Notes: generated from the sequence alone by a model not told the origin. Counted from the stretch's first letter, positions 8,787-54,729 are shown. The stretch: DNA of 64,000 bases from Longimicrobiales bacterium (GCA_965204735.1 OZ242008.1:1824001-1888000), one strand, 5' to 3'. Translations and numbers: made by a program.

Positions 8787-10019
8787 TTGAAGAAGACCCT
8801 CGACGACTTCGCCCCGAGCGAACTGAGTGGTGCGACCGTCGCCTTGCGAGCCGACTTCAACGTGCCGCTGGCCGGCGGGCGCGTCGCCGACCCCGCCCGC
8901 ATCGAGCGCACGGTTCCCACCATCGCGCGGCTCGCGGCGACGGGGGCGCGCGTAGTCGTCCTCTCGCACCTGGGACGCCCTGGAGGCCGGCCCGACGACC
9001 GCTTCTCGCTGAGGCCTGCCGCCGAGTATCTGGCAGGGCGGCTCGCCGTGCCGGTGCGCTTCCTCGACAAAGCCGGCGGGCCGGGAGTTGCCGATGCCGT
9101 GGCGGCACAGCGCCCGGGCACCGTCGTGGTCCTGGAGAACACTCGCTTCCTGCCTGGCGAGACCACGAACGATCCGGCAACGGCTGCGGATTGGGCGGCG
9201 TGGACGGACCACTTCGTCACCGACGCCTTCGGCGCGCTCCACCGGGCCCATGCTTCCACCGCCGGCCTTCCTCGGGCCGTCGAGGCGAAGGGCGGCGTCG
9301 CCGCCGCAGGGCTGCTCGTGGAGGACGAGCTGTCCGTGCTGGGCGGCCTGCTTCACGAGCCCCGGCGCCCCTTCGTCGCTGTCCTCGGGGGCGCGAAGGT
9401 GTCGGACAAGATCGGCGTTCTGGATGCGCTCTTGGCCCGGGCGGACGCGGTTCTGGTGGGGGGCGCCATGGCCAACACGTTCTTCCTGGCCATGGGACTC
9501 GAGACGGGAACCTCCCTGACCGAGCCGGGCGAAGCCGAGACGGCGAGAGCGCTCATGGAGACGGCCGGCGCCCGGCTGGCGCTCCCGGTGGACTGCGTGG
9601 CCGCCCGCGACCTGGAGGCGGGAGCGGTCGCAAGGACGGCGGACCGGAGCGAGATCGAGCCGGGGGAGGTGATCGGCGACGTGGGTCCCGCCACCGTCGC
9701 CCTCTTCGGCGGCTTCCTGGAGGAGGCGGCCACGGTGGCGTGGAACGGTCCCATGGGCGCCTTCGAGAAGGCGGGCTTCGAGGAAGGGACGTTCGGCGTG
9801 GCCCGTGCGGCGGCGACGGCCGCGGACCGGGGCGCCGACGTCGTGGTGGGGGGAGGCGACTCGACGGCGGCGGCCGCGGCAGCAGGCGTCGCGTCGCGCT
9901 TGACCCACGTCTCGACAGGAGGCGGGGCCTCGCTGGACTTCCTGGCGGGCAGGGAGTTGCCGGGACTCGAATCGCTGTCGGACCGTCCCGCCGTCGGTTC
10001 CACGGGAGCGCGCTCATGA
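8787..10019 (+). CDS. pgk: Phosphoglycerate kinase
   Basis: RADFNVP, SHLGRP, LENTRF, GGAKVSDKI, WNGPMG, HVSTGGGASL. Confidence 0.97.
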   Translation: MKKTLDDFAPSELSGATVALRADFNVPLAGGRVADPARIERTVPTIARLAATGARVVVLSHLGRPGGRPDDRFSLRPAAEYLAGRLAVPVRFLDKAGGPGVADAVAAQRPGTVVVLENTRFLPGETTNDPATAADWAAWTDHFVTDAFGALHRAHASTAGLPRAVEAKGGVAAAGLLVEDELSVLGGLLHEPRRPFVAVLGGAKVSDKIGVLDALLARADAVLVGGAMANTFFLAMGLETGTSLTEPGEAETARALMETAGARLALPVDCVAARDLEAGAVARTADRSEIEPGEVIGDVGPATVALFGGFLEEAATVAWNGPMGAFEKAGFEEGTFGVARAAATAADRGADVVVGGGDSTAAAAAAGVASRLTHVSTGGGASLDFLAGRELPGLESLSDRPAVGSTGARS

Positions 10020-42655: not shown

Positions 42656-43908
42656 GGCGCCCGGACTCCAAGCGTGGAGCCGGGGACCGCCTCGGCACGA
42701 CCGTAACCTTGGCCATACTGGTAAGTACTGTCGGCGCTGCTGTCGGGCCTCCTGGCGAGGAGCCGCCAAGTCACGCGATCCTCCACTTCGATCACGGACG
42801 ACACGCCGATCAAGCAGCTGGGTGAAGTGTTGTTTCACTCGGACAGCGTCGATTCATCGACATCGACGAAACTCGGCAAGTTGGGAGGAGGCTTGTTTCT
42901 CAACTCGAATCTGTTCGTATACGCCGACGCCCTTGCGAGGACGCTCAACTTTGTACACGTGGATCGGCGAGAGATCGTCACGGTCGGCGGCCATGGCCAG
43001 GGGCCCGGAGAGTTTCAGGTGGTTGGTGGGGTTTTTCGAGACGGCCGGGGCAATGTGATAGTTGACGACTGGGCAGCACTGCGTGCAACAGTACTTGATC
43101 CGGACGGAAATGCGATCCGAACCATAGCTTACGACGTGTCGCCGCTCACCGGCGGTCCGGGCGTGCCCAGGGTCGTCGGGCTGACGACGACCGGCACACT
43201 GATTGTACGCGATTCCGATCCATGGGTCGTTCCGCGGCCAGATGGCTTGTATCGACCGAATGTTTGGCTCGTCACTCTCGACGTCGCCTCCCGGTCATCC
43301 CTAACAATTGCGCACGGCCAGGGTCGAGAGAGCGTGCGAATGAACCACAGTGCAGATGACGCGCACAGCTTTTCCTTCAGTACCGTGGACGTCCCGTTTG
43401 CTCATGATCTGTTCAGCGTTTTCATGACGATAAGCTGTACGTAGCCGATACGAGCAAAGACAGTGCAGTCGTCGTGAATACGGCGGGAACCGTAGTTCGA
43501 CGAATTCCCCTTCCTCCCGCAAGAATCGCATCTGAAGAGGACCTTGCATCTTGGAAAGAACAGCAGACCACAAGACTGCGGGAGCGCAACAGATCTCCGA
43601 GTTCTTTTGATGCCAGCGACCACATCAGATGGACGAGGGAAGCCACTGGCAACACCGTTGCCCCGCGAATCAGCGGCATGTTCGTGGACGTCGCAGGACG
43701 GCTGTGGATGCAGCGATACGCGATGCCAACCGATACGGCGGCTTACTGGGAGCTGTGGGACCTGAATGATCAAGTTCTATCCGCTGTGGTGAGCGTGTCC
43801 CCAGGAGACCAGCTGTTGGATGCGGCGGGCGACGTTGTCTTGACCAGCAGCACGACCGAGTTGGGGTTGACCAGCATCACAGTATGGCGGCTTGCTGGCG
43901 AGTCGTGA
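42652..43908 (+). pseudogene. 6-bladed beta-propeller-type exported protein interrupted by two frameshifts (pseudogene or assembly error)
   Basis: GTG 42652 gives a signal-like MRRPDSK..TVTLAILVSTVGAAVG; a shift near 42745 leads into the frame with GGHGQGPGEF; a shift back near 43420 gives FHDDKLYVADT...FVDVAGRLW, homologous to the next gene. Confidence 0.7.
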
Positions 43909-45167
43909 ACCACCACCGGCTCGTTCGCGTACTTGCTCTGGTCGGCGCCGTAGTCGGAGTGTCGGGGCGGGCAGGGGACCAGAGGATTGTTGAACGGCGC
44001 CTGTCCTCGCCGCCGCTCTTTGACTCGCACCTCGTCACGGATCCTGGAATGTCGGCGATTGATGCGACATCTGCGCTCTTTACAGGGAAGAATCGATTTG
44101 CAGCAGCCGGTCCGGAGCATGCGGACGCCACGCTTGTCTTTGTCGACGTGGTCGATGGATCAGTGGCGACGGTTACTGCAGAGGCGCTGGGACTTTCGGG
44201 GATCGGGGGCATGACGCTGGTGCGGGCAGGCGCCGATGGCCGAGTGGTCGCTTGGCACGGCGAGTCCTCTCAGGTCGTCACCATCTCGACAACGGGGACG
44301 GCAGTTGAGCGCATACCCCTTGGGTTGCCCGCCGGCTTTATGACGGCGCCGTGGGAACTTGCTGCACTTGGCGTCGAAGATGGGGTGGCCGTGTTGAGGC
44401 AACGGGCCATTGGGGCCGGCTTCGGCAACGTGGGCGGCATGTCGTATCGTCAACGGCTAGAGTTTTCGCTGATTCGGCCCGGTGGAGACCCGGAACCCGT
44501 CGTGCAGGTTGGGGGAGCAGAACGTGTCTATCTTGCTGTTCGCGAGGACTCCGCTCGGGGCAATGTCGAGACGGATGTGATTTTCGGTGAAACGGTTTTC
44601 AGCGCTCCACTCGGCGCCGACAAGGTGATTGTTGCGGAAACCGACGCAGATTCGATCTGGGTGCTGGACACGCAGGGCAACTACAGGCCGCTGTTGCCGA
44701 CGCCACTGCGATCGGTTGTCGTGACTGAGGATGACGTTCGAATTGAGCGGAGTCGGCTGAGGCGGCGCAATCTGATGGACCAGGAGATGGACGGTTTGAT
44801 GGACATGGTATCCGGTCGGCATCGAGAGCAACTCATGGCTCTTGATCGTGCCAGTCGCATGGCGATCGACTTGGCGCCGGTGAGTTGGACGCCGCCGGCG
44901 ATCGCAGATCTGGTGGTGGACGGGCAGTCGAGAGTGTGGCTGAAGCGGTTCGTGCCGCCGACGGATTCGGTTGCCACTTGGGAAGTATGGAACACGGAGA
45001 GACGGGTTGTTGAGTTTCGCCTGGACGCACCGCAAGAGTGGGACGTCTTGGATGCTCGCGGTGACCAGGTGCTGCTTCGCGCGGAGGGGAGTTGGGAGGC
45101 CGGGGCAGATCGTCTTGGCCGGCTGCTGGTTATGGAAATGCAGCCGGCGTCGCGGCACGACGACTGA
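43905..45167 (+). CDS. Exported beta-propeller-type protein, paralog of the upstream gene
   Basis: Hydrophobic N-terminus; C-terminal PAIADLVVDGQSRVWLKR..PTD..TWEVWN..VLDARGDQVL matches PRISGMFVDVAGRLWMQR..PTD..YWELWD..LLDAAGDVVL. Confidence 0.72.
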   Translation: MNHHRLVRVLALVGAVVGVSGRAGDQRIVERRLSSPPLFDSHLVTDPGMSAIDATSALFTGKNRFAAAGPEHADATLVFVDVVDGSVATVTAEALGLSGIGGMTLVRAGADGRVVAWHGESSQVVTISTTGTAVERIPLGLPAGFMTAPWELAALGVEDGVAVLRQRAIGAGFGNVGGMSYRQRLEFSLIRPGGDPEPVVQVGGAERVYLAVREDSARGNVETDVIFGETVFSAPLGADKVIVAETDADSIWVLDTQGNYRPLLPTPLRSVVVTEDDVRIERSRLRRRNLMDQEMDGLMDMVSGRHREQLMALDRASRMAIDLAPVSWTPPAIADLVVDGQSRVWLKRFVPPTDSVATWEVWNTERRVVEFRLDAPQEWDVLDARGDQVLLRAEGSWEAGADRLGRLLVMEMQPASRHDD

Positions 45168-45357
45168 CGCACTTGTCCGGGAGCGCCTTGGATTGGTGGG
45201 CTGCCCGACGGTGCACGATGGCGGACGCCCGGGCTGCGAGGTGGACGCTCGCTGGCCGGGTCGACGCCGACCGGTACGGTGATACCGTGGTACCACGACG
45301 CGGGAGGCGCGGCGGCGAGCCGCCGGACCGACGGCCAACCTTCGGCAAGCGTCGGGC

Positions 45358-45414
45358 CGAAAAAAAAAATAGTCCCATCCAGCTATCCAAACGCCCATTT
45401 CCGGTCGCCATCAT
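45358..45414 (+). promoter_or_regulatory. Conserved non-coding motif, copy 1 (A-tract + ATCCA direct repeat + -10-like hexamer)
   Basis: cgA10tagtcccATCCAgctATCCAaacg-N15-catcat; near-identical copy at 62750-62802. Confidence 0.55.
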
Positions 45415-45507: not shown

Positions 45508-46227
45508 ATGGAGGCGAAGATGGCGAAGACGCGAACCGAACGGAGCCGTTGGCGCGCCCGCGTGGCGCGCGGTTCGACGGCAACTGGTTCCTCACACGGA
45601 GATTCGTCGCCGGCCGAAGCGCTGCGCGGTCGCTCGCCGGGGACGTTGGCGGCGATCGGCGGCCAGGGGACGGTTGCGGTTCTGGCGGGCGTGGCCTTTG
45701 CCGCCTGTGCCGGAGGCGGGCCGAACAGATCGGCGCCCCTGGACGTGGGCGACCCGGCGCCGCCGTCGCTGCAGCTGTCCGGGAGCGGACCGGCTCTGGT
45801 CTGGGCGTTCAACTCGGTGGATTGCCTGACCTGCAAGCTGGCGGAGTCGTCGTGGGTTGTCCGGCGGCTTCAACGCCGCTTCCGCGGCCTGAAGACGGTG
45901 GTGGCGGCGGTCGGACCGGGCAGTGCGTCCGATCGGGAGATGGTCGCAGGGTTCCTCGCCTCGGAGCGAATCCAAGCCACGATCCTGATGCAGACGCGGA
46001 AGGCGCACGCCGGGGAGTTCGGCGGAGGCGCGCCGCTTCCTGCGCTGTACCTGGTGGGGCGGTCGGGAACCACCGTGACGGCTGCCGTGCCCGACCCCGC
46101 TGCCCCCGGCGTTCCCGATTGGGACCGCTTCGACCTGGACGCAGTCCTGCACCGCCTCGCCCAGTCGGTCGACGCGGACGAAGAGCCGAACAGCACACAC
46201 ACAACTCGCAAGGAGAACAACCAATGA
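45508..46227 (+). CDS. Thioredoxin-fold (CxxC) putative lipoprotein; start uncertain
   Basis: AFAAC lipobox-like site, LVWAFNSVDCLTC, downstream PLPALYLVGRSG (cis-Pro-loop-like); stop overlaps peptide 1 ATG. Confidence 0.68.
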   Translation: MEAKMAKTRTERSRWRARVARGSTATGSSHGDSSPAEALRGRSPGTLAAIGGQGTVAVLAGVAFAACAGGGPNRSAPLDVGDPAPPSLQLSGSGPALVWAFNSVDCLTCKLAESSWVVRRLQRRFRGLKTVVAAVGPGSASDREMVAGFLASERIQATILMQTRKAHAGEFGGGAPLPALYLVGRSGTTVTAAVPDPAAPGVPDWDRFDLDAVLHRLAQSVDADEEPNSTHTTRKENNQ

Positions 46228-46499
46228 CGAACCGAACGGAGAAGCGTGCAAAGAGAAGCCGGGCGAAGACCCTGGTGGCCGCGACGGGCTTGGCCCTGGC
46301 CGTGATTTCCGCAAGCCCGGCCGCCGGGTTCGGACCCGCGCTCGACGGGCGGGCGGAGGCTCAGTACCACGTCAAGATGAAGCTGGTGTACGGACCCTTC
46401 CAGCTCTGCGTGTGGTCGTGCTACCTGGGCCGCTGCTGCGCCTACGACAAGCCCACCTTCCCATACTGGGAGTCGGAGTTCGACGCCATGACTCGTTAG
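46224..46499 (+). CDS. Small secreted Cys-rich peptide precursor 1 (91 aa)
   Basis: AAGGAG RBS; MTNRTEKRAKRSRAKTLVAATGLALAVISASPAAGFGPALDGRAEA|QYHVKMKLVYGPFQLCVWSCYLGRCC... Confidence 0.85.
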   Translation: MTNRTEKRAKRSRAKTLVAATGLALAVISASPAAGFGPALDGRAEAQYHVKMKLVYGPFQLCVWSCYLGRCCAYDKPTFPYWESEFDAMTR

Positions 46500-46605
46500 G
46501 CTGGAGTCCCTCGCCCCATCCCTCGGGCCGGAGCCGCCGGACGCATATAGATAGGCGCCGGCGGTCTGTTGCCCGTCCCCGACAGAAGCGAAGAAGGAGT
46601 CGCCG

Positions 46606-47766
46606 GTGAAGACCAACGCACCCGCAGGAAGCCGCCAGAAGACGAACGCAACCGACGTTGCCCCTCGGGCGCGTCAGCCATCAATTCCGTCTGGTCGGGT
46701 CTTCCCAGTCCTGGTCGTCGCGCTGACGCTGTCGGCCTGCGACCGGGCCGATCCTCCGTCCCCTCCGGCGACGCCCTCCGCTTCGACCTCCGAGACGCCG
46801 TCGCTCGCCGCGCTGGAGGGGGTCTTCGAGGTCGTCGGCTCTATCGAGCTGGAAGAGACCGACGAAGTGCTGACGGTCCAGCCCATGGTGACCGTCGGCG
46901 GTCCCGGCGAGCTGCTGGTCGCGGAGCCCATGGAGGGACAGGTCCGCGTGTACGGCGTGGACGGGGCGCTCCGGGCGAACCTGGGACGCAGAGGAGCAGG
47001 TCCAGGCGAGTTCGAGTTCCCGATGACGGCGCATCGGACGCTCGACGGCGGGCTGGTGGTCGCCGACGTGGGCATGTCGCGCCTGACCTTCTTGGCATCG
47101 GGCAACCCTGATTCGGTCCAGGTTGCCGATCTGCCCGACGTCGGGCTGCTCGCTGCCCAGGACATGGGCGACGGGCGCTACTTGATCGCCGGTCTCAACC
47201 GCCCGGACGGCCCGGAGGGAAGCTTCCTCCACTTCTGGAACCGAGGAACCCAGGAGTTCGAGCGGAGCTTCCTGCGCATGAGAGTTCCGGAGGAGCTCGA
47301 GGCGCTGGCCATGACGATGTCCGGCGTGGTGGCGGTAACGGAGGCCGATACCATATGGGCGGCCTGGGCCCTTTCGGACACGCTCTACAAGTACGACCTC
47401 GAGGGCAATCGCCTTGCCGCCTACCCGCTTGTCCTGCCCCGTCCGGGAAGCGGACCGCAAGGCGGCGAAGTCATCCGCGATCCCGTGTCCATGCGGGAAG
47501 AGTTCGACGCCACTACGCAGATCATGAACGTGTTCCCGCTGCGCAGCGGGAGGATCGCGGTCCAGGCCATGCAGACCCGTGGCAACGATGCGGTCTTCGA
47601 TCTCTTGATCGTCGACCGGGAAGGGAACGACCTGTGGAAGCAGGCGGGCACTCCCAGGTTGTACGTCGTCGCCGACGACGTGTTCTACTTCCAGGATCCG
47701 TCCTCGGTGCACCCCAACAAGTGGGTCGTGGCCACATTGGCCGAGCTGCCCACCAACGAGGGATAG
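46606..47766 (+). CDS. 6-bladed beta-propeller (NHL-like) lipoprotein
   Basis: AAGGAG RBS, LSAC lipobox, LGRRGAGPGEFEFP motif, repeated beta-strand blades (LLVAE, LVVAD, YLIAG). Confidence 0.82.
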   Translation: MKTNAPAGSRQKTNATDVAPRARQPSIPSGRVFPVLVVALTLSACDRADPPSPPATPSASTSETPSLAALEGVFEVVGSIELEETDEVLTVQPMVTVGGPGELLVAEPMEGQVRVYGVDGALRANLGRRGAGPGEFEFPMTAHRTLDGGLVVADVGMSRLTFLASGNPDSVQVADLPDVGLLAAQDMGDGRYLIAGLNRPDGPEGSFLHFWNRGTQEFERSFLRMRVPEELEALAMTMSGVVAVTEADTIWAAWALSDTLYKYDLEGNRLAAYPLVLPRPGSGPQGGEVIRDPVSMREEFDATTQIMNVFPLRSGRIAVQAMQTRGNDAVFDLLIVDREGNDLWKQAGTPRLYVVADDVFYFQDPSSVHPNKWVVATLAELPTNEG

Positions 47767-47848
47767 CCGTCGAGGGCGTGACGGCGCGGCCGTCCACTTC
47801 GGGGCGGCCGCGCCCGAACGCAGTCAACACACCCCAAGGAGCAAGACC

Positions 47849-48094
47849 ATGAGAGCACCCAAGAGAGAAACCAACAAGAGGAGCCGCGCGAGGACGGCCG
47901 TCAAGGCAGCGGGCTTCGCACTCTTCGCGCTGGCCGGAGCGCCGGCTGCCGGCGACTTTCCGCAGGCGACGCCTGCGGTCGAAGCCGCTGCCCAGCACCG
48001 GGCTGCCAAGAAAGTCGAAGGGTGGTGGATATTCGAGAGGTGCACGGGTGACTGTCCGGGTCACGGCCGGTGCTGCGGCACCTCCGTCGTGTAG
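47849..48094 (+). CDS. Small secreted Cys-rich peptide precursor 2 (81 aa)
   Basis: AAGGAG RBS; MRAPKRETNKRSRARTAVKAAGFALFALAGAPAAGDFPQATPAVEAAA|QHRAAKKVEGWWIFERCTGDCPGHGRCCGTSVV. Confidence 0.87.
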   Translation: MRAPKRETNKRSRARTAVKAAGFALFALAGAPAAGDFPQATPAVEAAAQHRAAKKVEGWWIFERCTGDCPGHGRCCGTSVV

Positions 48095-48149
48095 CCGGGC
48101 GGCCCAAGGCGCAGACCCCAATCAATCAAGACAAGGAGAAGAGAAAGTC

Positions 48150-48395
48150 ATGAAGACAAGACAGAAGACCACTGGCCGGCGTGCTTCGATCGCAAGACTG
48201 GCAAAGGGAGGCGCGTTGGCGGCGGGGCTGCTCGCCGTCGGCCCCTTCACGGCCGAGTTCGCTGACGCTCCGAGCGTCGAGGCAACGGCCCAGCGCGTGT
48301 ACGGCGACAAAGCGGTCCTGGCGTTGTGGTCCATCGAGTGGTGCATGTTCGACTGCCCGGGAGTCGGCGCCTACTGCTGCGGCCCGGTCGCGTAG
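48150..48395 (+). CDS. Small secreted Cys-rich peptide precursor 3 (81 aa)
   Basis: AAGGAG RBS; MKTRQKTTGRRASIARLAKGGALAAGLLAVGPFTAEFADAPSVEATA|QRVYGDKAVLALWSIEWCMFDCPGVGAYCCGPVA. Confidence 0.87.
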   Translation: MKTRQKTTGRRASIARLAKGGALAAGLLAVGPFTAEFADAPSVEATAQRVYGDKAVLALWSIEWCMFDCPGVGAYCCGPVA

Positions 48396-48541: not shown

Positions 48542-49267
48542 TCAGAAGGTTGCCGTGGCGAGCCGGCCCAAGGTCGAAGCCTCGGTGGTTTCCTCGGTCC
48601 AGTAGGGCTCGCCGTATTCGCAGCGGATGAGGGAGCCGTACCAGGCGTGCGCGCTTCGCACTTGGTCGAAGAACGGCCTGCGCCCGCCCGGAAACACCTC
48701 GCCGGCGCCCTTCGCGCGCCTGAACTGCGTGCCATATGCCGCGAGAACCGCGAGCTTTCGCTCCATCTGGCGGCCGATGTCGATCACGAAGGTGGGCTTC
48801 ACCGCATCCTCTCGGAACGCCAGGGCGTGCACCACCTTCTCGGGACGGTGGGCGGATCCGCCGCCGGGGAAGTTGCGCAGGCCCGCCAGGAAGGAGGCGT
48901 CTCGGGCCAAGCGCGCCGCCGCCTCGTGATCGGGATGGCGCCCCTTCGGCCAGTGGGTGACGACGACCCTGGGTCGAAGAGCACGGATTGCCCGGGCCAC
49001 GACGACGCGGGATTCCCGGTCGTCGACCAGCCCCGCGTCCGGCAGTCCGGCGCAGCGACGGTCCGCCAGTCCCAGGAGTTCGGCCGCCGCTGCCGCCTCC
49101 TGCGCCCGGGACTCCCGGCTTCCGCGACTCCCGGCCTCGCCGGCCGTCAGGTCGAGCACGCCCGTGCGCTCCCCGGCGTCCGCCGACTTCAGGAGAGCGC
49201 CGCCGCACAAGAGCTCGGCATCGTCCGGATGGGCCGTCACGGCCAGGACGTCGAGCGGCTCGATCAC
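48542..49267 (-). CDS. bshB1: Bacillithiol biosynthesis deacetylase (PIG-L family)
   Basis: LDVLAVTAHPDDAELLCGG, DLTAGEAGSRG, HPDH, PTFVIDI. Confidence 0.85.
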   Translation of the reverse strand: MIEPLDVLAVTAHPDDAELLCGGALLKSADAGERTGVLDLTAGEAGSRGSRESRAQEAAAAAELLGLADRRCAGLPDAGLVDDRESRVVVARAIRALRPRVVVTHWPKGRHPDHEAAARLARDASFLAGLRNFPGGGSAHRPEKVVHALAFREDAVKPTFVIDIGRQMERKLAVLAAYGTQFRRAKGAGEVFPGGRRPFFDQVRSAHAWYGSLIRCEYGEPYWTEETTEASTLGRLATATF

Positions 49268-49283
49268 GGCGGGACGCTCCGGG

Positions 49284-50567
49284 TCACTCGTAGCGCAGCG
49301 CGTCCACGGGGTCGAGCTTGGAGGCGCGCAGCGCCGGAAGGAGACCGAAGACGATCCCCGTGGCAGCGGCGAGGCCGATTGCGGCCCCGACGGACCAAAG
49401 GGGAATGCGCGCGGGAAGGGGGGTGAGGGCGGCGGCGGCGGACGACGCGCCCCATCCAACGAGCAGCCCGGCAGCGCCGCCCAGTGCGGTGAGGAACGAC
49501 GCTTCCAGGAGAAACTGCCACATGATCTCCCGGCGGGTCGCTCCCAACGCCTTTCGAACGCCGATCTCGCGAGTCCGCTCCGTGACGGAGATGAGCATGA
49601 TGCCGATCACCCCTATCCCGCCCACCAGCATCCCGATCGACGAAAGCCCGAGCATGACCGCGAAGAACATCGTCGTGAGCTGGTTGAAGAGATCCACCAT
49701 CTGCTCGGCCTTGACTGTCGCGAAGTTGTTTTCCTCGCCCGGTCCGAGGCCGCGCATCGAGCGCAGCGTGGAGACGATCTGGTGCTCGGCCTCGATCGCC
49801 GCGCCTTCCCGCGGCACCACCTGCACGCTCATGAACGTCCACCGGTCGCGTGCCTTCAGCCGCTTGTCGGCGGCGGTGTAGGGCACCACCGCGAAGTTCT
49901 CCTGAATCTCGCCGAAGTAGTTGTCGGCCAGGGAGTACACGCCGACCACCGTGAAGAGTTCGTTCGCCGCTCGCCGGCCGGCGTTCACTCGCACCCGCTT
50001 GCCGATCGGGTCGAGGTGTCCGAAGAGCACTTCCGCCAACTTCTCGGAGAGGACGACCACGGCTCGGGCCTGATTGATCTCGGCGACCGTGAAGTCCCGC
50101 CCGCTCACGAAGCCGCCCGGGGTGTACGAGGGCCATCCCGGCGACGCGCCGCGCCAGCTGACGTCGTACAGCCAATCCGACTCGAAGCGGACCGAGGCTC
50201 GGAACTCGTAGCCGGCGATTGCTTCTTCCACCGCAGGAAGGCTCTGAATGCGCCGCACCTCGCGGTTGCTGATGTCGGGCTTGTCGAACCAAGGGGGACG
50301 CCCGGATCCGTCGAAGGCCGCCCGCACGTCCGACATGTCGAAGGGCATCACCATGAAGTTGTCCGGTCCCGCGGAGTCGAACGCCGACATGACCTGGGTG
50401 CGGATCCCCGTCACGACCGCGGCGATCGTCACCACGACCCCCGTGCCGACCCCTACGCCCAGCACCGCCAAGGCGGCCCGCAGCCAGTTGGCCCGCAAGG
50501 CTTCGACCGCCACCCGCGCACCCTCCAGAAAGACCTTCCCCTTGGAACTCACCCTCTGTTCGGTCAC
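49284..50567 (-). CDS. ABC transporter permease (MacB/FtsX family)
   Basis: [38 protein letters not shown]. Confidence 0.93.
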
Positions 50568-50589
50568 GATCGGCTCCTCTTTTCGCTCG

Positions 50590-51831
50590 CTACTCGTACC
50601 GAAGCGCATCGACGGGATCCAGCCTCGCCGCGCGCGCCGCCGGATAGACCCCGGACACCACGCCCACCACCAGCCCCAAGACCACTCCGAGGGCGGCCCA
50701 CTTGGGAGCCACGACGGCGGGAAGCGGCGACACCGCCCCCACCAGCACCGTGGCCGCGGACCCCGTCGCCACGCCGAAGACCGCCCCGATGCCCGACAGC
50801 GTCGCCGTCTCGATCAGCACCTGGACCAAGATGTCGCGGCGCTTGGCGCCGATCGCTTTTCGGATGCCGATCTCCCGAGTCCGCTCCATGACCGTCACCA
50901 GCATGATGTTCATGATCACGATCCCGCCCACCACCAACGAAGTGCCCACTAGGCCGGGCAGGGCGGTGAAGAGGACCGTGCTGATCCGGTTCCAGAACCC
51001 CAGGGTCCCTTCAGTCGTCTCCGCGGCGAAGTCGTTCAGGTCGCCCGGGCGGAGCCGTCGCCGGATCCGCATGATCTCCTCCGCCTCCTGCTGCAGGGGC
51101 AAGACAAGCTCCGGAGTGTTGGCCTTGATCACGATCTGGTCGACGATTCCCCGGGGGTTGGTGAAGCTCTGGACCGGCGACCGAGCGGGCGCCACGGCGA
51201 TGTTGTCGAGGGACTGTCCCAGAAACGAGCCCTGCTCTTCGAGGACGCCGACGACGCGAAAGGGGAACCCGCGAATGCGGACTTCCTTGCCCACCGGGTC
51301 CACTGCTCCGAAGAGGACGTCGGCCGTGGAGCGGCCGAGCACGACGACTGGCCTGCCTTGTTCGTCCTCGGCCTGGCTGAACACCCGTCCCTCCTCGGCG
51401 ACCCAGTTGCGGATGTTGAACATCTCGGCCGTGGCGCCCACGATCCTCACGTTCTCCACCTTGAGGCCGCTCGCCGACTCGAGCTGGCCCCCGCTGGCGG
51501 ACTGGGCGCCGACCACGGCCGGCAGCGCGACCCGCTCCCGGAGATGATCCAGATCGTCGTAGGTCAGCCTGGGCGCCCGAGCCCACGCCCGGCGCTGCTC
51601 GTCCGAGGTGTTCAGGTCGTTTCGCGGCCACCGGAGGACCGTCACCGTGTTGACGCCGATGAAGCTCTCGACGAGAGTCGTCCGCATGTAGCGGTCCACG
51701 CCCTCCACGATGCTCACGACGAGGACGAGGAACATCACGCCCACGATCACGCCCAGCAGGCTGAAGAAGCTCTTGAGCTTCTGGGTGCGGATCTGCTCCG
51801 TGGCCAGCCGGACTCCTTCGAGCGTCTTCAT
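50590..51831 (-). CDS. ABC transporter permease (MacB/FtsX family)
   Basis: [38 protein letters not shown]. Confidence 0.93.
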
Positions 51832-51839
51832 GGCCCGGG

Positions 51840-53150
51840 TCAGTTGCCGCCGTCGGCGCCGTCGCCCTCGTCCTCGTCCGGGTCGGAGGCCCGGATTCGG
51901 TCGCCGTCCTCGAGCGTCCGCACGATCTGATAGGGGCCGCTCACCACCGTGTCTCCCTCGGCCAAGCCGGACAGCACCTCGAAGTACTCCTGACCCGCGA
52001 TGCCGATCTCCACGGCCATGAACGTCGCGCTGCCGTCGCGCACGACGTACGCTCCCTCGACTTCCACGGGCGCGTCCGCCGCCTTGTCGTCGCCGGTCGG
52101 GAAGGCGGCGCCGGAGGTTCCGGACGCGCCCGCGGTCGCCGCCGAGTCCGGGGACAGCTCCCTGACCGTCAGAGCGATGATGGGGATGCTCAGCGCGTCG
52201 TCGCGAGTGGCCGTCACCAAGTCCGCGGTCGCCGACAGGTCGGGGCGAAGCTCGACCCCCGGGTTCCGGAGCGTGACCACCACCTCGAAGTCGATCGTCG
52301 GCGTCTGCCCAGTGCCGGCCGACGCGGAGGGCGACCTGATGGCGCTGTTGCCGATCTCGGTGACCACGCCGGCAAAGTCGCGGTCGGGGAAGGCGTCCAG
52401 CTCCACCGTGGCGCTGTCCCCGAGCTGAATGCCGGGCACGTCGGTCTCGTCGACCTCCAGCACCACCTCCATCACGGACAGGTCCGAGACGGTGAGCACC
52501 AAGCTGCCCGGGTTGTTCATCGTTCCCACGATGACCGTCTCGCCTTCCTCCACGTTCAGGCGCGTGACCCGGCCGGCCATCGGCGCCCGGATGATCGTCT
52601 TGGAGACGTTGTCGCGGGATTCCTCCACCGCCGCCTGGGACTGGCTCACCCCGTACTCGGCCGACTCCAGAAGCGACCGCTGAACTTCTTCCTGGGTCTG
52701 GGCGTTCTCCACGTCCTGCAAGCTGACGAGCAGCGAGTCCCGCGCCCGAAGGTCTGCCAGCCGCTGCGCGTCCCGCTGCGCCTGAAGGTAGTTGGCCCGA
52801 GCCTGCGCCACTTGGGCCTGGGCCTGAAGCAGCGCGGCTTGGCTTCGGCTCAGGCTCGCCTGGAAGCGCGTGGGGTCGAGGCGGAGAAGCACCTGCCCTT
52901 CGGTCACCTCCTCGCCTTCCTCCACCAGCATCTCCGTGACCCGCGCCGAAATGTCGGAGCTGATGTCCACCTTGCGCCGCGCCCGCACGTTGCCGCTGGC
53001 CGTCACCGTCTCGACCAGGTTTCTCCTCTCGATTCCTTCGATCCGGGCGCTGGTCCCCGTCGCTCGGGAGCCGTTGGAGCCGAGGACCGCCGCAGTTGCA
53101 AAGAGGGCGACGACGCCGGTTCCGACGATGACCTTGGTTCTGGTTCGCAT
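51840..53150 (-). CDS. Efflux periplasmic adaptor (HlyD/MacA family)
   Basis: TASGNV, VEEGEEV..GQVLLRLD, coiled coil, IRAPMAG, VDETD, LRPDLSA. Confidence 0.93.
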   Translation of the reverse strand: MRTRTKVIVGTGVVALFATAAVLGSNGSRATGTSARIEGIERRNLVETVTASGNVRARRKVDISSDISARVTEMLVEEGEEVTEGQVLLRLDPTRFQASLSRSQAALLQAQAQVAQARANYLQAQRDAQRLADLRARDSLLVSLQDVENAQTQEEVQRSLLESAEYGVSQSQAAVEESRDNVSKTIIRAPMAGRVTRLNVEEGETVIVGTMNNPGSLVLTVSDLSVMEVVLEVDETDVPGIQLGDSATVELDAFPDRDFAGVVTEIGNSAIRSPSASAGTGQTPTIDFEVVVTLRNPGVELRPDLSATADLVTATRDDALSIPIIALTVRELSPDSAATAGASGTSGAAFPTGDDKAADAPVEVEGAYVVRDGSATFMAVEIGIAGQEYFEVLSGLAEGDTVVSGPYQIVRTLEDGDRIRASDPDEDEGDGADGGN

Positions 53151-53157
53151 GGTGTCC

Positions 53158-54729
53158 TCAGGGGTTCCTTATAGGGGCGCCGACCACGGCCTCCAAGTCG
53201 GCGACTGCGTCGTGATAGGTGAAGACGGCGAGAACCCGGGCCCGGTCGGCTCTGGCCTTGACCGTTTCCGCCTCCGCCAACTCGATGAAGCTGGAGATCC
53301 CCAGCCGGTACCGCTCCCTGGCCAAGCGAAGCTGTTCGTCCGCGAGCGCTTGGTTCCGTTCCTCGATCACGGCCGTCTCGTAGGCCGTCCGCACGATCGC
53401 CAGGCGCGACTCCACGTCGGCCCGCAGGGCGAGCTCCTGCTCGCGCAGCTGATGGCGGCTGTCCGAGAGCCGGGCCTTCGCCGCCTCCACGTTCTGCTGC
53501 CGGGAGAGGCCCTGGAAGACAGGCACCGACACCGTAAGCCCCGCCGACGGGGGCGAGTTCGTGAAGCTGAAGGGAAAGGCGTTGTTCTGGTCCCGGATCG
53601 CCTGGATCGCCGCGTCCGGGGTGGCAAGCCGGGAGCAGTTCTGGGGAGGCAGAGGGTCGGCCAGCCGGGCCGTCAGGTCGTTCAGCGTCTGGCACTGGCG
53701 GATCGCCGCCTGCCCCTGGGCGATCGCCTGGGCCTCCTGGCTGGCGGTGTTGCTCGCTTGGCGGGTGAAGCCGCTGAACCCGGTCGTGAGGGAGATCGAC
53801 GGGTAGTAGGAAGACCTGGCCATGCGCACGCCGTATCGGGCCGATTCCTCCGTCGCCCGCAGGGACCGCAGCCCGGGGTTGTCGCCGAGGGCGGACTCGT
53901 AGAGGTCGCGCGCGCTCCAGCTCGGCTCGGCAACCACGAAGGTCGTCGCCAACGACGGCTCCGCCGCCAACTCCACGCCCATCTGCTGAAGGAGCCTGAT
54001 CCGGGCGGTCCGAACCCCGGTCCGGGACTGGAGCACCGAGACCTGGGCCCTTCCCACGGCGACTTCGGCCTGCTGCACGTCGATGGCGTTGCCCGACCCC
54101 ACTTCCAGTCTTCCCTGGGCCAGCCGCAGGTCGATCTGCGCCCTCTCCATCTCCCGCTCGGAGAGGTTGAGCTCCTCGATCTGCCGCAGCACCTCCAGAT
54201 ACGCCTTGGTCACCCCCAGGCGAAGGCTCGCCTCCGCGACGCTCACCTGGGCGCGGGTGGCGTCTCGGTCGCGCTTGGCCTGTCCCGGGGCCAGGAGGGT
54301 TCGCCCGTCCATGGAGTAGCTGAAGCCCACGTTGTACGAGCTGAAGTAGAAGGAGGGCTGGTCCTGGAACCCCAGCTGCTCGGCGGTGATGCTGCCGAAG
54401 CGCTGCTCTCCCGCGCCCTGCCAGGAGAGGCTGGAGCTCGCCGACGCCGACGGCAGCCAGGAGGCGTAGGCGGATCGGACGTTCCAGTCGGCGACGGGCA
54501 CGTCGTTGCGGGCGACCTGCACCGCAGGGTTGTTGCGAAGGGCGACCTGCAGGGCGTCTTCAAGGGTCAGCGACGCGGGGACCTGCTCGCGGCCCGGGAC
54601 GGGCTGGCCTGCCGCGGGACGGAGAAGTCCGGCCGACAGCCCGGCGAGCACGAAGGCCGTCGCGAGCAAGGCGCCCGCCCCTCCACTTCGGATTGCGTTT
54701 CGGCTGTATGCCGCAGGACGGTATGACAT
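53158..54729 (-). CDS. TolC family outer-membrane efflux protein
   Basis: LTLEDALQVALRNNP, two OEP repeats, ARERYRLG. Confidence 0.92.
   Translation of the reverse strand: MSYRPAAYSRNAIRSGGAGALLATAFVLAGLSAGLLRPAAGQPVPGREQVPASLTLEDALQVALRNNPAVQVARNDVPVADWNVRSAYASWLPSASASSSLSWQGAGEQRFGSITAEQLGFQDQPSFYFSSYNVGFSYSMDGRTLLAPGQAKRDRDATRAQVSVAEASLRLGVTKAYLEVLRQIEELNLSEREMERAQIDLRLAQGRLEVGSGNAIDVQQAEVAVGRAQVSVLQSRTGVRTARIRLLQQMGVELAAEPSLATTFVVAEPSWSARDLYESALGDNPGLRSLRATEESARYGVRMARSSYYPSISLTTGFSGFTRQASNTASQEAQAIAQGQAAIRQCQTLNDLTARLADPLPPQNCSRLATPDAAIQAIRDQNNAFPFSFTNSPPSAGLTVSVPVFQGLSRQQNVEAAKARLSDSRHQLREQELALRADVESRLAIVRTAYETAVIEERNQALADEQLRLARERYRLGISSFIELAEAETVKARADRARVLAVFTYHDAVADLEAVVGAPIRNP

Follow-up and report, generated by a model that had tools for sequence, protein, structure and literature searches.

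What do three small cysteine-rich genes of a sponge-associated Longimicrobiales bacterium encode, and with which partners do their products act? The genes, P1 to P3, lie in a 64,000-nucleotide stretch of DNA (GCA_965204735.1 OZ242008.1:1824001-1888000; the window, in whose coordinates positions are given unless otherwise noted) and had been singled out in a preliminary description, made from the sequence alone, as precursors of diversifying toxins or ligands. We find that they belong to a three-component module that consists of a redoxin lipoprotein, a propeller lipoprotein, and exported four-Cys precursors. The two conserved partner genes, which define the system, were missing from the preliminary description. 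The module is real, conserved, and apparently undescribed, while its function is putative: it probably makes disulfide-bonded peptides plus a protein that binds them. We tentatively favor a three-component cell-envelope system in which the propeller is a receptor or trap for the folded peptides.

Three paralogous exported precursors

P1, P2, and P3 (Table 1) each have an AGGAG-containing ribosome-binding site, a leader with 7–8 Lys/Arg residues followed by a hydrophobic stretch, and a GC content at third codon positions of 0.77–0.87. For each, its own frame has the top score among the six under a codon model trained on neighboring genes. Over their full lengths, the real similarity score is reached by 0 of 2000 shuffles for P1–P2, 1 of 2000 for P1–P3, and 0 of 2000 for P2–P3; the P1–P3 similarity is not significant for the leader alone or the core alone (386/2000 and 581/2000 shuffles). 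The bare Cys pattern occurs near a stop codon 17 times in the six frames of the 4.14-Mb genome, and only P1, P2, and P3 pass a filter for start site, ribosome-binding site, and hydrophobic stretch. The proposal that the three open reading frames (ORFs) are paralogous exported precursors is supported.

Checking the ORFs also reproduced the previously listed cores, the Gln at residues 47, 49, and 48, the Gln-to-Cys spacers of 14, 15, and 16 residues, and the predicted mature lengths of 45, 33, and 34 aa. A Lys at +6 from the Gln is present in P1–P3 but is not a family trait, being found in 10 of the 43 members that have the Gln motif described below. The span 46224..48395 does hold the three precursors; it also contains the 386-aa propeller lipoprotein gene, which had gone unmentioned.

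Related sequences exist for each precursor. P1 has orthologues at the equivalent position in genomes G001 and G003; P2 has a 75% identical relative (P0111) and a core class that recurs in another genus (L077); P3 has an allele (P0003) with three residue differences, none at a Cys, and its nearest core is from G002 (L023). Contigs from two other studies (X12 and X14) agree with the region at every position over the parts they cover, and contigs X3 and X7 are strain variants of it. The runs that hold the region include sponge and marine metagenomes; no RNA run is listed among 21 of them, a result with no bearing on expression. The named relatives are Longimicrobiales and Gemmatimonadota. Promoter and terminator scans of the region gave chance-level results, and the DNA repeats among the P1, P2, and P3 genes are short chance matches. 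An imperfect hairpin (47769-47828; 27-nt arms, 74%) lies between the propeller gene and P2.

The precursors are linked to a redoxin and a propeller across Gemmatimonadota

All 16 peptides beside related propellers carry the Cys spacing, although the filter that selected them did not require it. At E≤0.01, a profile built from these 16 found matches in 63 of 301 genomes from the order. Among the 32 new loci with peptide matches at E≤1.3e-4, 31 carry both propeller and redoxin genes, in the order propeller-redoxin-peptide(s), with co-oriented propellers of the same subfamily (at least 203 bits); the exception is a lone peptide (L091). These 32 loci are not independent, as 23 come from one genus, 7 from a second, and 2 from others. 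Eight weaker peptide matches (E>1.3e-4) were fetched, of which one is a module without a redoxin (L104), one has a different Cys pattern (L105), and six are not modules.

The redoxin profile, which had matches in 43 of 401 genomes from the phylum, gives a converse view. Among 38 new redoxin-picked loci, the 23 strong matches (E≤5e-9) include a propeller in 23 cases and a small exported Cys-rich ORF in 22, and 1 of the 15 weaker matches is a module (L166). In most other loci, which were mapped with three profiles only, the three module parts are contiguous. Within Gemmatimonadota, the phylum that the genome-level searches covered, the module occurs in six families and in six different gene orders, a spread that speaks for coupling more strongly than the locus counts do. 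Its distribution is patchy, with no match in most genera sampled among those searched.

A library of 1.84 billion proteins yielded 33 peptide representatives, all of 60–94 aa. A single-protein query returned 11 loci, 10 titled Longimicrobiales, Gemmatimonadetes, or Gemmatimonadota and 1 'uncultured bacterium'; one protein match, on a 3.6-kb contig, bears an unconfirmed Thioalkalivibrio label. Because free-living Longimicrobium terrae, a named species, carries the module as well, the module is not an adaptation specific to sponges.

Peptide variation is real but bounded

An alignment of 78 precursors shows no invariant column apart from the four Cys; the spacing is C-x3/4-C-x4-6-CC in 71 and C-x2-CC-x4-CC in 7. 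This bears out the fixed frame proposed from the window peptides. The core Cys number is even in 75 of the 78, and the ten residues preceding the first Cys hold a mean of 2.3 aromatics. In 43 precursors, a Gln is preceded by an [AVSG]x[AGS] motif. The hydrophobic stretch ends about 16–18 residues ahead of this Gln, which suggests either a long last signal region or two cuts. None of the 78 has the twin-arginine translocation (Tat) export motif [ST]RRx[FL]. Core net charge is centered on zero (29 negative, 16 neutral, 33 positive), and His, though found in 36 cores, forms no conserved column. The genome contains glutaminyl cyclase and VKOR genes.

Neither Pfam nor NCBIfam holds a fitting family for the 78 members; 10 scattered single-member Pfam matches include no toxin family and no bacteriocin family. 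The peptide profile found one unrelated match in the PDB (E 0.6), and the ESM Atlas gave no usable match for P2, a result that shows neither absence nor novelty.

We compared nonsynonymous to synonymous substitution ratios (dN/dS) across seven close locus pairs and obtained 0.24 for the propeller, 0.32 for the redoxin, 0.42 for the leader, and 0.47 for the core (bootstrap 0.34–0.65). Leader and core are both under purifying selection; the inter-Cys loops (0.61, 0.29–1.28) are the sole part not separable from 1, and all 11 locus pairs give the same picture. Core dN is about three times propeller dN (0.096 vs 0.031). Positional peptide classes are kept within the large genus, and the top match of P2 is a peptide of that other genus, not its own paralogue.

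These data bear on the main reading of the preliminary description, diversifying toxins, here taken as bacteriocin- or conotoxin-like peptides in an arms race for which the propeller would provide immunity. The fixed Cys frame with variable loops, the tandem paralogues, the faster core dN, the loop interval that includes 1, and propellers without partners (see below), which resemble orphan immunity genes, are what such a system could display. We nevertheless judge it improbable: with a core dN/dS of 0.47, close to that of the leader, and core classes conserved across genera, the description of the cores as hypervariable and diversifying, and with it the diversifying toxin, is left unsupported. 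The zero-centered charge is unlike that of cationic membrane-active peptides, no toxin or bacteriocin family was found for any member, and the module is present in free-living L. terrae. The variation does not look like that of an arms-race toxin family. The label of conotoxin framework XVI was likewise formal only, covering the C-C-CC order; the peptides are bacterial, with no toxin-family or solved-structure similarity and no sign of positive selection.

A thioredoxin-fold lipoprotein is encoded with the peptides

The redoxin gene ends within the start of P1, its stop codon overlapping the P1 ATG (ATGA); its candidate starts are 45508, 45520, or later. It is present in single copy in the genome. 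The AlphaFold model of the protein (predicted local distance difference test score, pLDDT, 85) has DsbE, Sco, SdbA, and ResA as best Foldseek matches, and these fold matches include both oxidases and reductases. Among PDB sequences the protein matches the reductase ResA best (E 9e-4), and its ESM Atlas matches are unnamed clusters and Redoxin/AhpC-TSA families. Across 37 family members, the second CxxC Cys is invariant, the first is present in 32 and the lipobox Cys in 33, and most have the motif C-L-[GTS]-C. A thioredoxin fold with TlpA-type additions and a CxxC, complete in those 32, place the family with TlpA/DsbE/ResA. Because some members lack the first Cys or the Pro at the likely cis-Pro position, the protein need not be a classical oxidase; it is a putative thiol-disulfide exchange protein that may act in the oxidase or the reductase direction. 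Upstream of the gene, a run of 10 A (45361-45370) stands out in a 69% GC genome and is two bases shorter in X3 and X7; it could be a variable promoter element.

The likeness to ResA and Sco, the latter among the top fold matches, would also suit periplasmic Cu/Zn-binding peptides, with a ResA/Sco-like reductant keeping the four thiols reduced and the propeller docking the loaded peptide. C-x3-C plus CC could supply four thiolates. We regard this as quite improbable, given that His is not conserved, that Cys numbers are even and the six-Cys class gains its extra Cys in pairs, that Cys spacing varies, and that no metal transporter or DUF692-type gene is among the window genes scanned.

The propeller is a predicted binding protein

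The third component is a lipoprotein modeled with high confidence (pLDDT 91.9) as six four-stranded blades. Its closest folds are NHL domains and the uncharacterized Bacteroides proteins BVU_1028 and BF0058, which give the best TM-scores (0.71 and 0.68). Against Pfam DUF5128 (PF17170) it scores 17.1 bits (E 0.0034), below the 22.9-bit cut-off; 21 of 52 subfamily members match DUF5128 at E≤0.01 (best 1.7e-9), through the N-terminal blades only. The six-bladed fold and lipoprotein signal expected of DUF5128 proteins are both present in the window propeller, and its lipobox Cys is kept in at least 90% of alignment rows covering that position. It is a member of the peptide-linked subfamily. Propeller enzymes hold metal ligands at the starts of inner strands. 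Here, none of the six inner strands begins with a conserved acidic or His residue, and this lack at the channel mouth leads us to read the protein as a non-catalytic binding protein.

A predicted complex of the propeller and the P1 core has an interaction score (ipSAE) of 0.56, compared to 0.02 for the best of three controls; runs share at least 58% of contacts, and partner pLDDT is 45–56. Of 157 solved complexes, 116 pass the ipSAE mark, as do 2 of 215 mismatches; passing scores at 0.60 or under comprise 18 of the 157 solved complexes and both passing mismatches. Because 0.56 falls in this shared range, propeller-peptide binding is weakly predicted.

Subfamily propellers also occur in reduced settings. 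Two loci pair a propeller with a peptide and no redoxin (L023, L104), and seven propellers are partnerless (L024, L026, L028, L032, L034, L035, L036). One of the latter is a second subfamily member in the window genome (G000:C1:3352086-3353105, L024 9087-10106 +, 362 bits), near which no redoxin or peptide was found; by reading, two ORFs resembling extracytoplasmic function (ECF) sigma factors lie about 3 kb upstream. In a quick tree, all seven propellers labeled as beside six-Cys peptides form one 99%-supported clade from two families, which also takes in two partnerless rows.

A proposed route from precursor to recognition

Building on the observed genes, linkage, folds, and purifying selection, we propose that the precursors would exit by the Sec route and be cut, in one or two steps, at an A-x-A↓Q-type site. 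The new N-terminal Gln may be cyclized by the genome's glutaminyl cyclase. The membrane-anchored redoxin, judging from its fold, CxxC, and linkage, could form or reshuffle two disulfides among the four Cys, and these would staple an aromatic beta-hairpin to a short loop. The lipid-anchored propeller would then bind the folded peptide as a cognate, non-catalytic receptor or trap and let the cell recognize peptides of its own class, for signaling or immunity. Dedicated disulfide handling is suggested by an exported paired-Cys peptide encoded with an envelope thioredoxin-fold protein, and a cognate binder is favored by the redoxin-less propeller-peptide pairs, the partnerless propellers, and the six-Cys propeller clade.

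Several observations weigh against this proposal. Most loci have one propeller per two or three peptide classes, and one propeller for several classes is unlike a one-to-one receptor/immunity pair. The propeller's top-face loops, with an entropy of 2.21, vary no more than its bottom loops (2.18). Among the window genes, those for sensor kinases, transporters, or other signal relay are not found next to the module, and the correspondence of propeller clade and peptide class may be plain shared descent. As for the redoxin, 5 of 37 lack the first CxxC Cys while keeping the second, 13 of 37 lack a Pro at the likely cis-Pro position, and the best sequence match is a reductase.

A broader form of the proposal, which we consider doubtful, is phylum-wide recognition, in which stapled hairpin peptides would serve as identity signals or weapons between Gemmatimonadota and be read or neutralized by propellers. 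If true, the dozens of further propeller genes in these genomes would be a receptor repertoire for additional Cys-rich peptide families.

Relationship to known systems

Bacteroidota have cassettes that place an NVEALA small protein (PF14055) beside DUF5128-type six-bladed propellers. Like these, the module has an exported small Cys-containing precursor next to a DUF5128-like propeller lipoprotein and an E-A-x-A-Q-like motif about 15 residues after the hydrophobic stretch; unlike these, it has the C-C-CC frame and a fixed three-gene set with a redoxin. PF14055 matches none of the 78 peptides at E≤0.1 and nothing in the genome at E≤1. The literature search returned no paper mentioning 'NVEALA' or 'DUF5128', so it offered no tested mechanism to borrow.

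NHLRC2 of animals and SOQ1 of plants similarly combine a TlpA-like domain with a six-bladed NHL propeller (propeller Z 19.4), but as a fused chain, whereas the mapped loci have separate reading frames, each with its own lipobox. There is no sequence-level match, and a CxxC replaces CC(I/V)NC, the NHLRC2 motif (PMC6107167). No conserved neighbors were reported for seven bacterial NHLRC2 homologues (PMC6107167), whereas the redoxin-propeller pair here is tied to peptides.

Could redoxin and propeller nonetheless be a split redox unit of this type, a maturation machine with the propeller as scaffold that holds and folds several peptides whose targets, after release, lie elsewhere, in competitors or in the sponge host? 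A single redoxin and a single propeller serving as many as three peptide classes, the direct adjacency of their genes in most loci, and the alignment of the NHLRC2 and SOQ1 propellers would all fit, and the weak propeller-peptide prediction fits equally. Moreover, the residues conserved in NHLRC2 border the interdomain cleft (PMC6107167), and PedC raises pediocin potency (PMC4919988). We think this unlikely, however: propeller-peptide loci without a redoxin and partnerless propellers exist, NHLRC2 and SOQ1 rank 10–14, below other NHL and Bacteroides propellers, and are absent from profile searches of PDB sequences, and the redoxin motif is C-L-[GTS]-C rather than CC(I/V)NC. Our preferred reading of the propeller remains that of a receptor or trap.

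The combination of a Cys-containing exported peptide with a dedicated thioredoxin-fold protein is shared with pediocin PA-1 and PedC; sublancin, with BdbB, is another disulfide bacteriocin that has its own thiol-disulfide oxidoreductase. Disulfide handling by PedC has been proposed for pediocin (PMC4919988). Unlike these bacteriocins, the module has a signal-peptide-type (basic-hydrophobic-AxA) leader instead of a double-glycine leader, neutral cores, a third gene that encodes a propeller lipoprotein, and a Gram-negative host. No peptidase-containing ATP-binding cassette (ABC) exporter, a mark of class II disulfide bacteriocins, turned up in the module when window genes were scanned; the neighboring MacAB-type genes lie beyond bshB1 on the opposite strand. 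In its workings the module would resemble a disulfide-peptide cluster that brings its own oxidoreductase, and it falls outside each of the named systems.

No description of the module was found in the literature within the reach of our search, which most subscription papers and bioRxiv supplements lay outside. Variable peptides have reportedly been paired with six-bladed propellers in Bacteroidota, an unconfirmed account that would lower the novelty of the concept. The main text of PMC10581226 does not mention propellers, NHL, RiPPs (ribosomally synthesized and post-translationally modified peptides), or bacteriocins.

Gene neighborhood

Table 1. The module and its surroundings in window coordinates.
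Feature	Position	Strand	Details
Lower-GC insert between phosphomannomutase gene and module	~42700..45200	+	GC 0.59-0.65 vs ~0.69
Frameshifted propeller gene in low-GC insert	~42827-43908	+	X12, X14 same form as window
Second exported protein in low-GC insert	43884-45167	+	
Thioredoxin-fold (TlpA/DsbE/ResA-like) lipoprotein	45520..46227	+	lipobox Cys 45706-45708; CLTC motif 45823-45834
Precursor P1	46224..46499	+	91 aa; Gln47 at 46362; C-x3-C-x4-CC at 46407-46439
Six-bladed NHL/DUF5128-like beta-propeller lipoprotein	46606..47766	+	386 aa; lipobox Cys 46738-46740
Precursor P2	47849..48094	+	81 aa; Gln49 at 47993; C-x3-C-x5-CC at 48041-48076
Precursor P3	48150..48395	+	81 aa; Gln48 at 48291; C-x3-C-x6-CC at 48342-48380
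bshB1 (bacillithiol deacetylase)	48542..49270	-	TIGR04001 above cut-off; convergent right boundary

The low-GC insert lies outside the conserved module, and congeners G001 and G003 are without it. Because small indels in its propeller gene are among the differences listed for X3 and X7, the break in this gene varies between strains. In G001 and G003 the phosphomannomutase gene abuts the redoxin gene, and the order redoxin-peptide-propeller-peptide is flanked by the phosphomannomutase gene and bshB1. The bshB1 boundary is common to G001, G002, and G003. The syntenic site of G002 has the order propeller (split)-redoxin-peptide, with a second propeller-peptide pair elsewhere; the split gene is L031 6741-7457 (-), the redoxin and peptide there are intact, and intact subfamily propellers occur at other places in the genome.

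MacAB-type permease genes neighbor the module in the window genus; in the window, 49284-54560 (-) holds genes for MacAB-type exporters and probably one for an outer-membrane channel. The modifying enzymes by which enzyme-modified RiPPs are recognized (radical SAM, DUF692, LanM, and YcaO proteins) were not found among 12 window proteins scanned.

Other Cys-rich peptides near propellers

The genome has 64 propeller profile matches. Of its 26 small Cys-rich ORFs that look exported, eight are no more than 2 kb from a propeller, with 1.5 expected; three of these eight are P1–P3, and some others are doubtful ORFs. Another small exported Cys-containing ORF is beside a propeller gene (G000:C1:3669686-3669934, -), and tandem paralogues at G000:C1 1970000-1970212 (-) and 1970862-1971062 (-) are beside propeller genes, in both cases with a different Cys pattern. 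Directly upstream of another propeller gene is an exported protein with a Cys-rich C-terminal domain of 8 Cys (L179 7698-8597, -; G000:C1 ~3777700-3778600); L040 has a similar layout (148 aa, 10 Cys).

Two further peptide types were seen at other loci. A second family, with 8 Cys in the order CC...CC-x2-CC...C...C, is represented at L027 4509-4850 (+) and L144 7429-7689 (+), within about 2.5 kb of module genes. Downstream of the peptide-propeller array of L104, a 57-aa ORF (~9545-9720, +) has the knottin-like order C-C-CC-C-C.

Significance

The peptides constitute an unannotated family of bacterial disulfide mini-proteins whose loops form a natural library. Should the propeller prove to be a receptor, the module would represent peptide recognition in a phylum where the searched literature describes no such system. 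It also offers a testable role for one subfamily of DUF5128-like propeller lipoproteins, a group whose heavy expansion in these genomes is unexplained. L. terrae is a cultured species (PMC10581226), and because it carries a member of the module, expression, processing, and binding can be tested.

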